9,478 nucleotides of DNA. Origin: a virus. Taxonomy: Duplodnaviria; Heunggongvirae; Uroviricota; Caudoviricetes. The translations under genes and the position numbers were made by a program. Below the pieces are notes generated by a model. That model ran no database searches. It was not told where the DNA came from and was given only the letters and a program-made list of their open reading frames with translations. The stretch is taken from IMG/VR virus record IMGVR_UViG_2648501186_000020, one strand, 5' to 3'. Each line of letters starts with the position of its first letter. Position 1 is the stretch's first letter. Below are positions 1 to 6,995 of this stretch, piece after piece.

Positions 1-1254
1 ATGCTGGAACAAATGGGCATTGCCGCGAAGCAAGCCTCGTATAAATTAGCGCAACTCTCCAGCCGCGAAAAAAATCGCGTGCTGGAAAAAATCGCCGATG
101 AACTGGAAGCACAAAGCGAAATCATCCTCAACGCTAACGCCCAGGATGTTGCTGACGCGCGAGCCAATGGCCTTAGCGAAGCGATGCTTGACCGTCTGGC
201 ACTGACGCCCGCACGGCTGAAAGGCATTGCCGACGATGTACGTCAGGTGTGCAACCTCGCCGATCCGGTGGGGCAGGTAATCGATGGCGGCGTACTGGAC
301 AGCGGCCTGCGTCTTGAGCGTCGTCGCGTACCGCTGGGGGTTATTGGCGTGATTTATGAAGCGCGCCCGAACGTGACGGTTGATGTCGCTTCGCTGTGCC
401 TGAAAACCGGTAATGCGGTGATCCTGCGCGGTGGCAAAGAAACGTGTCGCACTAACGCTGCAACGGTGGCGGTGATTCAGGACGCCCTGAAATCCTGCGG
501 CTTACCGGCGGGTGCCGTGCAGGCGATTGATAATCCTGACCGTGCGCTGGTCAGTGAAATGCTGCGTATGGATAAATACATCGACATGCTGATCCCGCGT
601 GGTGGCGCTGGTTTGCATAAACTGTGCCGTGAACAGTCGACAATCCCGGTGATCACAGGTGGTATAGGCGTATGCCATATTTACGTTGATGAAAGTGTAG
701 AGATCGCTGAAGCATTAAAAGTGATCGTCAACGCGAAAACTCAGCGTCCGAGCACATGTAATACGGTTGAAACGTTGCTGGTGAATAAAAACATCGCCGA
801 TAGCTTCCTGCCCGCATTAAGCAAACAAATGGCGGAAAGCGGCGTGACATTACACGCAGATGCAGCTGCACTGGCGCAGTTGCAGGCAGGCCCTGCGAAG
901 GTGGTTGCTGTTAAAGCCGAAGAGTATGACGATGAGTTTCTGTCATTAGATTTGAACGTCAAAATCGTCAGCGATCTTGACGATGCCATCGCCCATATTC
1001 GTGAACACGGCACACAACACTCCGATGCGATCCTGACCCGCGATATGCGCAACGCCCAGCGTTTTGTTAACGAAGTGGATTCGTCCGCTGTTTACGTTAA
1101 CGCCTCTACGCGTTTTACCGACGGCGGCCAGTTTGGTCTGGGTGCGGAAGTGGCGGTAAGCACACAAAAACTCCACGCGCGTGGCCCAATGGGGCTGGAA
1201 GCACTGACCACTTACAAGTGGATCGGCATTGGTGATTACACCATTCGTGCGTAA
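1..1254 (+). CDS. proA: Gamma-glutamyl phosphate reductase (ProA), complete 417 aa
   Basis: Full-length ORF from ATG at 1 to TAA at 1252-1254. Translation reads as E. coli-type ProA ([25 protein letters not shown]...), recognised from memory. It sits directly upstream of thrW, as in the E. coli chromosome. Confidence 0.95.
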
Positions 1255-1368: not shown

Positions 1369-1444
1369 GCCGATATAGCTCAGTTGGTAGAGCAGCGCAT
1401 TCGTAATGCGAAGGTCGTAGGTTCGACTCCTATTATCGGCACCA
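1369..1444 (+). tRNA. thrW: tRNA-Thr (anticodon CGT), 76 nt including CCA
   Basis: GCCGATATAGCTCAGTTGGTAGAGCAGCGCATTCGTAATGCGAAGGTCGTAGGTTCGACTCCTATTATCGGCACCA. Cloverleaf elements are visible: D-loop AGCTCAGTTGGTAGAGC, anticodon loop with CGT, T-loop GGTTCGACTCC, 3' CCA. Position after proA matches thrW. Confidence 0.93.
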
Positions 1445-4043: not shown

Positions 4044-4168
4044 TTTGTTCTCCACGTATATGCGCTGCACCGCGCTGAATTCCGGTAAAAGGAAGCCCTC
4101 ACCGTCCGGCGATTATTGAGTCAATTACATTTCCATAAATGCCCCCGTAGGGGCGGTTAGTTTCTCCA

Positions 4169-4255
4169 CAAAACAGAGAAGAACACCTGCGGTGGCAGCC
4201 GCCCGGATGGATTGGGTTATGAGCCCGTCGTCCGGTGATGCTCTTCTCTGTTTTG
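4169..4255. repeat. Perfect 14-bp inverted repeat CAAAACAGAGAAGA / TCTTCTCTGTTTTG enclosing a 59-nt GC-rich loop
   Basis: Read directly from the sequence. Arms are exact reverse complements. The loop contains further short complementary segments (GCGG/CCGC, CCGG/CCGG). Confidence 0.85.
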
Positions 4256-4523
4256 TAAAAAGGACGGTACCAGCCGGAAGCAAGGGTACAAGCTGGTACC
4301 GCCAAGACTACACACAGCATAAAGTTGTGGTGCCGGGTGCCTCCCGGTGCCTGGCGAAGGTTGCACACCAGGCGGGTGGGTATCCACAGAAGGTCGACTG
4401 TCAGCCTCAACCTTAACCCGCGTGCGCTGAGCCGCATTCACCACAACGCTAAGGATTCTCTCTGGTTGAAAATACTTAGCTGTTATGTGCCTGCTTTTAG
4501 CCACATCAGGCGAGGTGGACCTA

Positions 4524-4572
4524 GTTATTCCCCAACAACAAGGATTCGGTTAATCTGGTTATCCCCAACAAC
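4524..4572 (+). repeat. Two direct repeats GTTAT(T)CCCCAACAAC, 34 bp apart, immediately upstream of the orf144 RBS; a third degenerate copy (CCACAACGCTAAGGATTC) lies at 4441-4458
   Basis: Copies at 4524-4539 and 4558-4572. The AAGGATTC...CTGGTT context also recurs at 4451-4468 and 4540-4560. Confidence 0.7.
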
Positions 4573-4587
4573 GCAAAAGGAAAAGAA

Positions 4588-5022
4588 ATGTCCGGTAATA
4601 TCTATACGCTGTACAAATCCCACTGTGAAAATGTTGGAAAGTATCGGGGCATTGAAATCAGTGGGGTAGTGTCATCAGTCGAAATAAGCAAAGTTGAATC
4701 AAGGGCAACATTACTTACTCTTTTGGACCTTGTCTTACATGAGCACCGGAAGAAATTCGGCACTCCCTATAATCAGTTGAATGGGAAAAAGGCTCTGGTT
4801 CACCTTATTCTGATGAAGCATCACTGGATGCCAAAACAGATTAATGAGATGAAATTTGATGAACTTCTTCTTTCAATTCAGGATGAACTCACACTTGATA
4901 AAATAAGCGTAACCGCCCAGAAATTTTTAGATTATCGAGACTGGAGATCACAAATTCATCATTTTGATGATTTTGACGAAAATGAATGGGATCCTAATTT
5001 GTCTGCACAATATCTAAAGTAA
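4588..5022 (+). CDS. Orphan hypothetical protein, 144 aa, transcribed opposite to the flanking phage early-left operon
   Basis: ATG preceded by SD AAGGA (4577-4581) with 6-nt spacer. Protein-like composition with His/Lys-rich centre (HEHRKKF, MKHHWMPK) and acidic C-terminus (HHFDDFDENEWDP). A plus-strand intrinsic terminator follows at 5260-5285. No family recognised. Confidence 0.75.
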   Translation: MSGNIYTLYKSHCENVGKYRGIEISGVVSSVEISKVESRATLLTLLDLVLHEHRKKFGTPYNQLNGKKALVHLILMKHHWMPKQINEMKFDELLLSIQDELTLDKISVTAQKFLDYRDWRSQIHHFDDFDENEWDPNLSAQYLK

Positions 5023-5200
5023 CATCCTGTGATAAAACCGTGATTTCCTGATCCAGTTTTTTTAAGGAGTCTATTGTTTCCTGTCGATAAGACAGCACTT
5101 CACGAAGCTGGTTTATAGCTGCCAGCTTCTTTGTCATCCACTCATAAATTTCCTCATCTGTGTAGCCAGGCGCGACGATTTTGGGTTCTGTTTTGTGCAT
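4994..5200 (-). CDS. Small hypothetical protein, 68 aa; first gene downstream of PL
   Basis: ATG at 5200 with strong SD GAGGAG and 7-nt spacer. The track's longer form uses an upstream TTG. Stop TAG at 4994-4996 overlaps the 3' end of orf144 by 29 bp (convergent). No arginine-rich N-like motif; mid-region may be helical (AAINQLREVLSYRQETIDSLKKLDQEI). Confidence 0.6.
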   Translation of the reverse strand: MHKTEPKIVAPGYTDEEIYEWMTKKLAAINQLREVLSYRQETIDSLKKLDQEITVLSQDVTLDIVQTN

Positions 5201-5245
5201 TTCACATCTCCTCAAGTTATCAGTTACTTGTTGATGGGGACCAGA

Positions 5246-5257
5246 TTGTTAAAGAGC
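5246..5257 (-). promoter_or_regulatory. boxA-like element (GCTCTTTAACAA on the minus strand) in the PL leader, 2 nt downstream of a hairpin
   Basis: Minus-strand reading AGCGCCCTACAGGACGCT-TA-GCTCTTTAACAATCTGG. The 12-mer matches the rrn / lambdoid nut boxA consensus as I recall it. Position is between PL and the first PL gene. Confidence 0.4.
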
Positions 5258-5259
5258 TA

Positions 5260-5285
5260 AGCGTCCTGTAGGGCGCTTTTTTGTT
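5260..5285 (+). terminator. Rho-independent terminator, plus strand (likely ends the orf144 transcript)
   Basis: Stem AGCGTCC / GGGCGCT (7 bp including one G-U), loop TGTA, followed by TTTTTTGTTG. The same hairpin on the minus-strand transcript is the one adjacent to the boxA-like element. Confidence 0.55.
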
Positions 5286-5367
5286 GCTAACGAATCATCC
5301 TGGACTTCATATGCCCCAGGCGGCTACTTCGTGGGCGTCCTGCCTGTTCGTTGTTTCGCTTGGGTAC

Positions 5368-5395
5368 ATTATGTATCTCAAAGGTACATTGTCAA
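5368..5395 (-). promoter_or_regulatory. PL-like sigma70 promoter with overlapping operator (OL)
   Basis: Minus strand reads TTGACA (5395-5390), 16-nt spacer, CATAAT (5373-5368). Palindrome TACAT-T-ATGTA (5365-5375) overlaps the -10. GGTACA half-sites at 5363-5368 and 5383-5388 resemble the OR half-sites. Confidence 0.6.
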
Positions 5396-5396
5396 G

Positions 5397-5422
5397 TATA
5401 AAAAAACCTGCCGAAGCAGGTT
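5397..5422 (-). terminator. Rho-independent terminator just downstream of cI (minus strand)
   Basis: Minus-strand hairpin AACCTGC-TTCG-GCAGGTT followed by a 7-U run. It lies 13 nt after the cI stop. Confidence 0.6.
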
Positions 5423-5434
5423 CATAAACATTGA

Positions 5435-6109
5435 TTAGGCTTTGATTTTGTATCTTCTTGGTTTTCCTGAGAAAATCACTGTACCAATTATAGAGCAATT
5501 ACCGTTGATCTTAATGTAAGGCTCAGGCCAGTTTGGGTTTAACGCTTTGAGATAACGCTGTGTCCCATCTTCTATCAACCTTTTGAAGGTGGTTTCACCT
5601 GTATCGTGCATCAATGCAATAACGTCGTCACCGTGGCAGGCAGGTACTTCAGGATCGACAAAAATCATGTCTCCCGGGCGGTACTCATCAATCATTGAAT
5701 CACCTATCACCCGCAAGATATAAGTCATTTCCCCACAGGGTACAGGGCAGGGATACGTTTCTGCTGTGCTCAAATCAACCTCAGAATATCCAACTTCTTT
5801 CCATGCTCCGGCCTGTACCCATGATATGACAGGGACTAATGTGATTTGTTTATTAGTGATTGAAACATCAGGTTTTTTTGTGATGTTCGTTGTCTGGTGT
5901 TCTTGATCGAGCCATCCGACAGGCAGGTCGAAACATTTTTCGATGTGTCGTGCCATGCTGTCACCGATATTTTTAGTAGCACCATCTCCCATAAACCTGC
6001 TGGTCTGGGTTGGCTCGCGATCAATCATAGTGGCAAAGGAAGAATTCCCGCCAACACCATCTCTCAGTTTTCTGGCGTTAGACCGCCGGATGTCATGGAT
6101 TGTTTTCAT
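5435..6109 (-). CDS. cI: Prophage repressor, CI / C2-like, 224 aa (N-terminal HTH, C-terminal S24 LexA-like autopeptidase)
   Basis: C-terminal VIGDSMIDEYRPGDMIFVD contains the S24 Ser motif; TFKRL supplies the Lys. Candidate Ala-Gly cleavage site in WVQAGAW. Divergent from a cro-like gene across an operator-rich spacer. Confidence 0.88.
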   Translation of the reverse strand: MKTIHDIRRSNARKLRDGVGGNSSFATMIDREPTQTSRFMGDGATKNIGDSMARHIEKCFDLPVGWLDQEHQTTNITKKPDVSITNKQITLVPVISWVQAGAWKEVGYSEVDLSTAETYPCPVPCGEMTYILRVIGDSMIDEYRPGDMIFVDPEVPACHGDDVIALMHDTGETTFKRLIEDGTQRYLKALNPNWPEPYIKINGNCSIIGTVIFSGKPRRYKIKA

Positions 6110-6124
6110 AACGAAATTAAAACC

Positions 6125-6197
6125 CTTGTACCGTTAAGGTACAAGTATCTTGAAGGTTCATTTCAATCATGTAATATGTACACCGGAGGTACATATT
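6125..6197 (+). promoter_or_regulatory. OR operators with PR (and presumably PRM) between cI and cro
   Basis: Palindrome CTTGTACC-GTTAA-GGTACAAG (6125-6145). Second inverted repeat AATATGTAC-N7-GTACATATT (6173-6197). PR candidate TTGAAG (6150-6155), 16-nt spacer, TAATAT (6172-6177). Cro SD GGAGG at 6185-6189. Confidence 0.55.
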
Positions 6198-6199
6198 GT

Positions 6200-6400
6200 A
6201 TGAAAGCGTATTGGGACTCTTTAACCAAAGAACAGCAGGGCGAGTTGGCCGGAAAAGTTGGCTCAACACCTGGCTACTTACGGCTGGTTTTCAATGGCTA
6301 TAAAAAAGCCAGTTTTGTGCTGGCTAAAAAACTTGAGCAATGCACGTCAGGTGCAATTACGAAATCTGACTTAAGACCGGATATCTATCCGAAAGATTAG
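6200..6400 (+). CDS. cro: Cro-like HTH regulator, 66 aa
   Basis: ATG at 6200 with SD GGAGG 10 nt upstream. Small basic protein (MKAYWDSLTKEQQGELAGKVGSTPGYLRLVFNGYKK...) divergent from cI. The track's 167-aa form is an in-frame upstream extension that runs antisense through cI. Confidence 0.8.
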   Translation: MKAYWDSLTKEQQGELAGKVGSTPGYLRLVFNGYKKASFVLAKKLEQCTSGAITKSDLRPDIYPKD

Positions 6401-6431
6401 CAGAACACTTTCAATTTTTAACCACAGAACG

Positions 6432-6995
6432 ATGAGGCTAATCGTGGGTAAGCATCACTGGAAAATAGAAAAACAGCCTGAGTGGTACGTGAAAGCTGTC
6501 AGAAAAACTATCGCGGCGTTGCCGGGTGGTTACGCTGAAGCGGCTGACTGGCTCGATGTAACAGAAAACGCTTTATTCAACCGCCTTCGTGCAGATGGCG
6601 ATCAGATTTTCCCGCTGGGATGGGCAATGGTTTTACAGCGTGCTGGTGGCACTCACTTCATTGCTGATGCTGTGGCGCAGTCTGCAAATGGCGTCTTTGT
6701 GTCTCTTCCTGACGTCGAGGATGTGGACAACGCCGATATCAACCAACGCCTGCTGGAGGTCATTGAACAGATCGGCAGTTATTCAAAACAGATTCGTTCA
6801 GCAATTGAAGACGGTGTAGTGGAACCGCATGAGAAGACAGCAATTAACGACGAGTTGTACCTCTCAATTTCGAAGCTGCAGGAGCATGCAGCACTGGTCT
6901 ACAAAATTTTTTGCATTTCAGAAAGTAATGACGCCCGCGAGTGTGCAGCTCCGGGCGCCGTGGCGTGTCGTGACTGTGGAGAAACTAACGCATGA
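6432..6995 (+). CDS. Hypothetical protein at the cII position, 187 aa (possibly a YdaT-like CII functional analogue)
   Basis: ORF directly after cro. A GTG at 6444 with SD GAGG (6434-6437) may be the true start. C-terminus is Cys-rich ([14 protein letters not shown]). Stop TGA overlaps the next ATG as ATGA. Product assignment is a guess from position. Confidence 0.6.

Follow-up and report, generated by a model that had tools for sequence, protein, structure and literature searches.

The closest described relatives of the element considered here are the boxA sites of the rRNA operons and the nut sites of the lambdoid phages. In the rrn leader the boxA 12-mer (GCTCTTTAACAA) is found downstream of a hairpin, and in the 16S–23S spacer a hairpin is followed by TT and then by GCTCTTTAAAAATCTGGAT; across the two the gap between hairpin and boxA amounts to 2–4 nt, being 3–4 nt in the leader. 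The rrn site is promoter-distal within its leader and precedes a long and largely untranslated stretch, and the sequence next to the boxA has a distant complementary partner, as in the 16S processing stem. Within these operons the Nus complex also serves as an RNA-folding chaperone. In phages lambda and P22 the nutL region lies downstream of PL on the early-left transcript and the order of its parts is the reverse, with the boxA (P22 nutL: CGCTCTTTAAC) placed first and boxB, a hairpin with a conserved A-rich pentaloop, following 8–10 nt later. The P22 locus runs from PL and nutL to gene 24 and to an opposed gene that is expressed in the lysogen, sieB, and uses an N-type system.

Two further kinds of element are relevant. 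Phages HK022 and HK639, which have no N protein, carry put RNAs, cis-acting elements some 70 nt long with which the PL transcript begins; HK639 has a copy on the left side only. RNAs of the HK022 type work on RNA polymerase by way of the beta-prime zinc-binding domain and suppress terminators with no need of protein factors. To our knowledge, early antitermination in many N-less lambdoid phages is largely unexplained. Single consensus boxA elements have been described by the Wade laboratory in CRISPR arrays and in the suhB leader, where they precede long untranslated transcripts that would otherwise be Rho targets (PMC7665894, PMC5725501), and in the CRISPR arrays boxA alone protects the untranslated RNA from Rho (PMC7665894). 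A search of the text of these two papers for phage and prophage found no prophage boxA target.

The DNA analysed here, a stretch of 9,478 nucleotides referred to below as the window, has a 98.6% match to Shigella phage SfIV and matches of up to 100% to many E. coli prophages, and is an SfIV/e14-like prophage located at proA–thrW that lacks an N-like protein. Its layout (Table 1) was taken from the RefSeq annotation of an identical locus. The absence of a recognisable N, already remarked upon in a preliminary description made from the letters of the sequence, held when 10 ORFs on both sides of the immunity region were searched with Pfam and PHROGs; the RefSeq annotation names no antiterminator among the remaining ORFs of the left operon, and orf68, whose DNA resembles ydfC in part, does not have an arginine-rich N terminus. 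Transcription from PL is inferred to start near position 5361, and the record of phage Ayreon has a promoter annotated at the same position as PL. The -10 element and spacer of this promoter are overlapped by a 19-nt direct repeat, TGT.TC...GGTACATT, with a spacing of 20 (5352–5390), and these repeats probably serve the ymfK-type repressor as OL operators.

Table 1. Features of the prophage locus, with positions and strands in the window.
Feature	Position	Strand	Source or remark
proA	1-1254		
tRNA-Thr	1369-1441		
Integrase, excisionase, yfdT, yfdR	left arm		
Conserved leader of opposed gene, TTATTCCCCAACAACAAGGATTCGGTTAATCTGGTTATCCCCAACAAC..AAGG..ATG	4525-4587	+	contains the far arm(s) of the inverted repeat
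Opposed accessory gene, ECs1072-family, 144 aa, phrog_5286	4588-5022	+	RefSeq, PHROGs
orf68, 68 codons, phrog_1744	4994-5200	-	first translated gene of the PL transcript
Near arm of inverted repeat, AAUCUGGUCCCCAUCAACAAG	5227-5247	-	starts at the end of boxA
rrn-type boxA, GCUCUUUAACAA, on the PL transcript	5257-5246	-	1 nt after the hairpin
Intrinsic terminator of opposed-module transcription	5259-5284	+	stem 5259-5278, T-run 5279-5284
Structured leader RNA, 68 nt, three-way junction, 5' end of the PL transcript	5354-5287	-	covariance model
PL-type sigma-70 promoter, TTGACA-16-CATAAT	5395-5368	-	11/12 match; directly after the cI/ymfK terminator
cI/ymfK terminator	5423-5404		terminator scan
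LexA-type repressor ymfK/cI	5435-6109		
cro-like ymfT	6200-6400		
CII-like ymfL, O-like replication gene	right arm		

The locus is a mosaic, and sharp joints were located by BLAST at 5241, 5289–5291 and 5352–5355. The sequence that phage PhiR29 has in common with the window begins at 5241 and runs rightwards, for SfV and many others the shared part is limited to 5289–5355, and the Kati-type phages share 4500–5352 and have a different immunity region. The joints at 5241, 5289 and 5352 make it possible to run the check on the conservation of the boxA 12-mer that the preliminary description had proposed.

On the PL transcript the window carries a single exact copy of the rrn 12-mer, and none of 200 shuffled sequences contains one. 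The experimentally derived consensus for a functional boxA, GYTCTTTAANA (PMC5725501), likewise matches the window only at the 5246–5257 site, where 0.03 matches would be expected, and neither the 12-mer nor the consensus scan found a second boxA in the window or a nutR-like partner on the PR side. When the operon sequences are compared, the identity with the leader boxA of E. coli K-12 rrnH and rrnB is 12/12. The likeness continues 3' of the boxA, as the phage consensus for the extension, TCTGGAT, is that of the rrn spacer; some phage variants match the spacer at 19/19 positions, and the window retains TCTGG only. The GU-rich boxC (UGUGUGGG) is absent from the window, just as it is from the spacer, and the sequence found in its place is TCTGGTCCCCATCAAC. 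The identical boxA together with the hairpin-before-boxA order make the element rrn-like in both sequence and arrangement. It differs from the rrn sites in standing within a phage early operon, in having no boxC and in having a hairpin that doubles as a terminator for the opposite strand. With the nutL regions of lambda and P22 it shares the position downstream of PL and the presence of a boxA, but its order is reversed, it has neither an N protein nor a PR-side partner and the sequence 3' of the block is unconserved. The boxA is probably a functional NusB/E site, and a dependence of read-through on Nus factors is predicted from the sequence match taken together with the known biology of boxA.

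On the plus strand the same hairpin has the character of an intrinsic terminator. The terminator scan reports a stem of 8 pairs, 5 of them G-C, with a loop of 4 nt and then TTTTTTGTTG, so that a G+C-rich stem, a short loop and a run of six T are found together downstream of a plus-strand gene, and the folded RNA has a predicted energy of -11.5 kcal/mol. On the minus strand a C.A mismatch takes the place of the plus-strand G.U and the energy is -7.5 kcal/mol; the scan does not call a terminator there, the tail is UUAGCUCU rather than a U-run, and the hairpin is thus not bidirectional. This asymmetry is general, as the terminator strand is the more stable in all 37 of the 37 boxA-linked hairpin variants (mean -10.9 vs -6.5 kcal/mol). 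The A-run on the PL strand is kept in 89/91 contexts. The plus-strand element is very probably a functional terminator. Its stem alone is generic, being found in many unrelated phages and in 78/135 contexts without boxA, and among these generic stems too the A-run is nearly always on the same side, which supports a real terminator for the strand that bears the T-run. A plus-strand hairpin of 9 bp with a weak T-tail also lies inside orf68 (5104–5129), 80 nt past the stop of the opposed gene, and could provide an initial, leaky stop to opposed transcription.

The preliminary description had proposed this combination of a plus-strand hairpin and T-run with a minus-strand rrn-type boxA, ordered as in rrn and not as in lambda nut, and the scans and the comparison with K-12 rrnH and rrnB and with lambda and P22 nutL agree with it on all of these points. 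The close succession of hairpin and boxA also stands, although the distance given, 2 nt, is in fact 1 nt when counted from the 8-bp stem or 3 nt when counted from its 6-bp G-C core.

A-run, hairpin and boxA behave as one unit, AAAAAAGCGCCC-loop-GGACGCTT-N-GCTCTTTAACAATCTGGATATCC, which was sought by pattern scan in viral contigs and in one genome per species, followed by an analysis of contexts. Viral contigs yielded the block in 91 unique contexts, and 25 species-representative genomes also have it, almost all carrying an Enterobacterales label; the contexts so counted are not phylogenetically independent, and 17/42 of the 17-mer matches in the contigs of the species-representative genomes are chance matches with no hairpin. 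A cI-like gene, its terminator and a PL-type promoter invariably precede the block, complete phage genomes carry it once each and not on the PR side, and beyond the block the sequence on both sides diverges completely among contexts. Within the boxA, position 10 alone varies (C, A or G), and it corresponds to the N of GYTCTTTAANA. The hairpin loop varies freely in both sequence and length (3–7 nt) and hence is not a boxB that could be read by an arginine-rich peptide. Conservation of the 12-mer in related prophages, put forward earlier as a check, was borne out in loci collected regardless of boxA, where a hairpin 3' of the PL leader is followed by GYTCTTTAANA in 15/15 cases. One record, labelled Chryseobacterium sp. 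18061 (L345), contains a full enterobacterial-type leader RNA and boxA block and probably represents assembly contamination or mislabelling.

The near-identity of the block could mean that part of this conservation comes from recent spread by recombination at the mosaic joint. Taken further, the terminator alone may be functional, with the boxA and its extension being passengers at a recombination boundary that are kept by recent spread. Such a history would fit the joints at the block edges (5241 in PhiR29, 5289 in SfV), the generic nature of the stem and the near invariance of the block, whereas true terminator stems usually covary. Yet the block flanks seven unrelated gene families in genomes whose labels span more than 14 Enterobacterales genera, the free variation of the loop and of the two flanks does not extend to boxA positions 1–9 and 11, the sole boxA position that does vary coincides with the degenerate position of the functional consensus, and about 25 conserved bases upstream of the stem would be needless for a plain terminator. 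The passenger explanation is considered quite unlikely.

The same boxA is found in one other phage setting. The early leader of phage T7 contains GCTCTTTAACAATCTGGT (T7 813–829; L244 414–430), identical over 18 nt to window positions 5257–5240, and places the boxA 63 nt after the A3 start on a transcript made by the host polymerase. T7 is a lytic phage, its boxA has no fused hairpin or terminator and the record has no annotation for it; we know of no established function for this site. A literature search by exact sequence strings yielded the T7 leader alone, with the 18 nt in common, and the fusion of boxA and terminator is absent from the annotation of the GenBank records and from the SfIV paper (PMC3851460). 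No prior description was found of an rrn-type boxB-boxA on the early-left transcript of an N-less prophage, joined to the terminator of a convergent gene.

The preliminary description had also seen that the PL transcript faces an opposed module, and the block proves to be closely tied to such genes. An opposed ORF has its stop no more than 300 nt past the boxA in 52/59 module contexts (88%), as against 20/82 PL leaders without the module (24%). The opposed genes belong to seven unrelated families, with identities within a family as low as 31%, and neither Pfam nor PADLOC returned a match for them to a defence or other family; the ECs1072-family gene of the window is listed in the SfIV paper as unique and of unknown function (PMC3851460). 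The association with opposed genes of seven unrelated families indicates that the block is part of the phage backbone and borders a slot that holds backwards-facing accessory genes. The conserved leader of the opposed gene is likewise found before unrelated opposed genes in other phages.

In this CA-rich leader the motif ATTCCCCAACAAC / ATCCCCAACAAC is repeated in tandem, and another copy related to these, the third, is found at 4436–4452. The neighbouring region, 4100–4500, is G+C-rich and has no clean ORF, being annotated in RefSeq as a frameshifted pseudogene on the minus strand; a plus-strand hairpin, TGCCCCCGTAGGGGCG, lies within it (4140–4155), and about 4445–4510 is also present beside ymfI in K-12 e14.

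To reach yfdR, a polymerase that starts at PL has to pass orf68 and, after it, a stretch of about 0.9 kb whose RNA is untranslated and antisense to the opposed module; the enrichment of C over G in this antisense stretch is modest. Around 80% of the phages that have the leader RNA described below have no boxA, and some of these, such as K-12 e14 (ymfI), still have an opposed gene in the operon, so that boxA is not required for every arrangement of this type. The topology of the window is the same as that of P22, with the difference that P22 relies upon an N-type system.

The recurrence of the block, its position downstream of PL and the 88% versus 24% association with opposed genes lend good support to a dual-use reading of the joint, according to which it has a distinct job on each strand. 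A full model in which this single joint permits read-through in the face of Rho is slightly favoured; it builds upon the untranslated antisense stretch that has to be crossed and upon the protection from Rho that boxA alone can provide (PMC7665894). On the plus strand the element is a strong intrinsic terminator, by which transcription of the opposed gene, probably expressed in the lysogen, would be ended before it enters the PL leader, PL itself and the cI 3' end. In the PL transcript the hairpin is deliberately weaker, with C.A for G.U and no U-run, such that transcription from PL would not be stopped. After induction NusB and NusE are predicted to bind the boxA on the nascent PL RNA and, along with NusA, NusG and SuhB, would make RNA polymerase resistant to Rho, as occurs at rrn operons and CRISPR arrays. 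The polymerase would then cross orf68 and the antisense RNA and reach yfdR, xis and int. Like the CRISPR-array and suhB sites, the prophage boxA stands as a single consensus copy before a long untranslated transcript, and it differs from them in that a convergent terminator and an inverted repeat are joined to it.

The suhB leader also offers a precedent for a negative role, in which the Nus complex would block translation of orf68 and thereby promote Rho termination, damping early-left expression. The 45 nt that separate the boxA from the start of orf68 are within the working range reported for this effect (PMC5725501), but in 48/59 module contexts the ORF that follows the boxA lies on the other strand and the arrangement with orf68 is peculiar to the window type, which leaves a negative boxA very improbable. 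If instead the boxA works as proposed in the read-through model, a prophage target would join the short list of Nus complex targets outside the rRNA operons, and the phage would have a way to host a backwards-facing, lysogen-expressed gene without losing expression of the downstream operon.

The block is also the starting point of an inverted repeat that had not been noticed earlier. Its near arm starts at position 11 of the boxA (consensus AATCTGGATATCC, window AATCTGGTCCCCATCAACAAG, 5247–5227), and in the window the arms pair as 4552–4571 with 5228–5247 (I1) and as 4529–4542 with 5227–5240 (I3, 93% complementary). The repeat therefore brackets orf68 and the opposed gene, with the far arm being placed in the leader just upstream of the opposed start codon. 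An inverted match beyond the opposed gene was found in 59/78 contexts, in comparison with 0/78 for the direct orientation and 1/78 for a shuffled query; the median arm length is 14 nt (range 11–28) and the median distance to the far arm is 574 nt. Arm variants are common to the near and far copies, and 7/16 repeat pairs have changes on both sides, a value reached in 0/500 shuffles, with the counts, like those for the leader RNA below, being uncorrected for relatedness. The wobble counts for the helix favour the PL strand by 20 to 4, which is weak evidence since the wobbles are mostly at the helix end. An invertible DNA segment was also considered. Among 5,426 complete E. coli genomes the flipped junction gave no full-length match, 1,050 of them carrying one half, and the absence of the flipped arrangement argues against a switch of this kind.

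On the PL RNA the repeat would form a helix that starts from the edge of the boxA and closes off the antisense segment, whereas on the mRNA of the opposed gene itself it would join the 5' untranslated region to the 3' one by pairing. These features suggest an rrn-like long-range helix at the boxA. Within the read-through model, the 5' strand tethered at the boxA could meet its 3' partner and close the antisense segment in the manner of the 16S rRNA flanks. As in the rrn operons, a promoter-distal site within the leader is followed by a long and, with the exception of orf68, largely untranslated stretch; the RNA that would be looped out in the prophage is the antisense of an accessory gene and not rRNA. 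Also in this region is a second hairpin, CAAGT-N8-ACTTG (5212–5229, minus strand), which had been pointed out in the preliminary description. It is present, but it is weak (-5.0 kcal/mol; 19/200 shuffles fold as well) and is found in near-identical copies only, with its 5' half overlapping the near arm of the inverted repeat, and as an element in its own right it is unsupported either statistically or comparatively.

The second addition to the earlier picture is a structured RNA between PL and the hairpin. The 65 bases of this interval are conserved despite otherwise unrelated flanks in SfV, SfII, ST64B, ZF40 and YeP1, and likewise in AH07, mEp237, mEp460 and SPN3UB, and the RNA is also found in the ymfJ leader of E. 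coli K-12 e14. It is a closed three-way junction in which P1 is formed by 5352–5347 with 5294–5289 and P3 by 5320–5316 with 5303–5299. Its core, AGGCAGGACGCCCACGAAGUAGCCG, is invariant and is carried by at least 120 viral contigs. In a gapless alignment of 48 diverse copies (A1), 94.8% of cells are compatible with pairing, compared with 20–50% in slid controls, and 10/14 pairs display compensatory change, with 0/500 shuffles reaching the observed score; the copy in the window scores 91.6 bits with the covariance model. Exactly one copy per locus was found in each of 100 loci searched, out of the at least 120 with the core pattern. In loci collected by the block pattern alone, the RNA lies upstream on the same strand in 83/100. 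No copy of either the leader RNA or the boxA was found on the PR side in the window, in 200 loci or in the complete phage genomes. Rfam was searched with gathering thresholds for the entire window and with E<=10 for 4400–6500; the leader RNA had no match, and the only hits were the tRNA and chance ones.

The P1 helix starts about 8 nt after the inferred PL start, and in 82/93 contexts the -10 element ends 12–23 nt before it, a distance that places the RNA at the very 5' end of the transcript. Its strand was assigned from the position of the promoter, as the counts of G.U and C.A in the helices did not discriminate (15 C.A vs 6 G.U outside P2). The RNA is the general PL leader element of this N-less phage group, and from its position and the absence of N it is a candidate cis-acting antiterminator, namely a put-like RNA that would act upon the polymerase. 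If so, the boxA could be redundant.

The leader RNA has some similarity to the put RNAs, in that both are cis RNAs some 70 nt long that open the PL transcript of a phage lacking N and that, like the HK639 copy, it is found on the left side only. Short strings, CGAAC(A)GGC and CAGGAUGA, are also common to both. The put RNAs consist of two side-by-side stems, in contrast to the closed three-way junction of the leader RNA, and they do not have the same invariant core. The possibility that the leader RNA is itself an HK022- or HK639-type put RNA was rejected: BLAST found only 8–10-mers in common, and the covariance model gave no match (E<10) to HK022 putL or putR or to HK639 putL. The putL numbering used in this comparison was reconstructed and checked against PMC9378689, and HK639 was taken from the annotation of NC_016158.

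A put-like leader RNA may nevertheless be sufficient by itself to make PL transcription resistant to termination, in which case the boxA and the inverted repeat would serve RNA processing or stability, either by forming a stem through which RNase III would cut out or neutralise the antisense segment or through 5'–3' pairing that would stabilise the opposed mRNA. The strong structure of the RNA, its promoter-proximal position (82/93 contexts) and its far wider distribution than that of the boxA would all be in keeping with such a division of labour, as would the start of the repeat inside the boxA, the changes on both sides of its pairs, the lack of a flipped form and the chaperone activity of the Nus complex in rrn operons. 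What weighs against it is that the covariance model matches neither HK022 nor HK639 put RNAs and that few contexts (6/81, strict criteria) have a strong intrinsic terminator on the PL strand downstream of the leader RNA, so that a need for put-type antitermination is not evident. It is judged unlikely that the leader RNA acts alone.

A wider reading, which is doubtful but worth stating, combines the three elements and regards the early-left leader as a miniature version of rRNA-operon logic, made up of a new structured RNA, an rrn-type boxB-boxA and a long-range pairing tethered at the boxA. The 5'-terminal RNA, unrelated to put according to the covariance model, would modify or mark the elongation complex, and the boxB-boxA would load the Nus complex whilst the tethered strand pairs with its partner 0.35–0.8 kb downstream. 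The antisense RNA would be looped out, and perhaps excised by RNase III, and the Rho-resistant polymerase would continue into the recombination genes. If this were true, the slot between the repeat arms would be a standard socket for genes expressed in the lysogen. The gap in the understanding of N-less phages is in any case provided with three testable elements: a host-type boxA joint, a covarying leader RNA and an inverted repeat that brackets the accessory slot.

The leader of PL is variable in other respects. A second, unrelated type of conserved PL leader, GGTGTGGTAGTTAGCAGTACGG...CACCAGCGTGGCGATCAGGTGTGACACCTCGGAAGAGACGAGG, replaces the 68-nt RNA in some phages (L207, L205, L152 and L194), where it lies about 200 nt upstream of the boxA block. 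Gifsy-like members (L015, L016, L017 and many IMG/VR loci) have an extra conserved domain, UUAACGCGCAGNAGG...AACGUUCCGCUGGCCGGCGAUAAGGCA, 3' of the leader RNA, and in some phages without the core RNA this domain stands directly before the boxA block. The PL transcripts of lambda and P22 start with CAUCAGCAGGACGC, which resembles the 5' part of the leader RNA (CAGGCAGGACGCCC), and this likeness hints at a common origin of the initial transcribed regions of PL.
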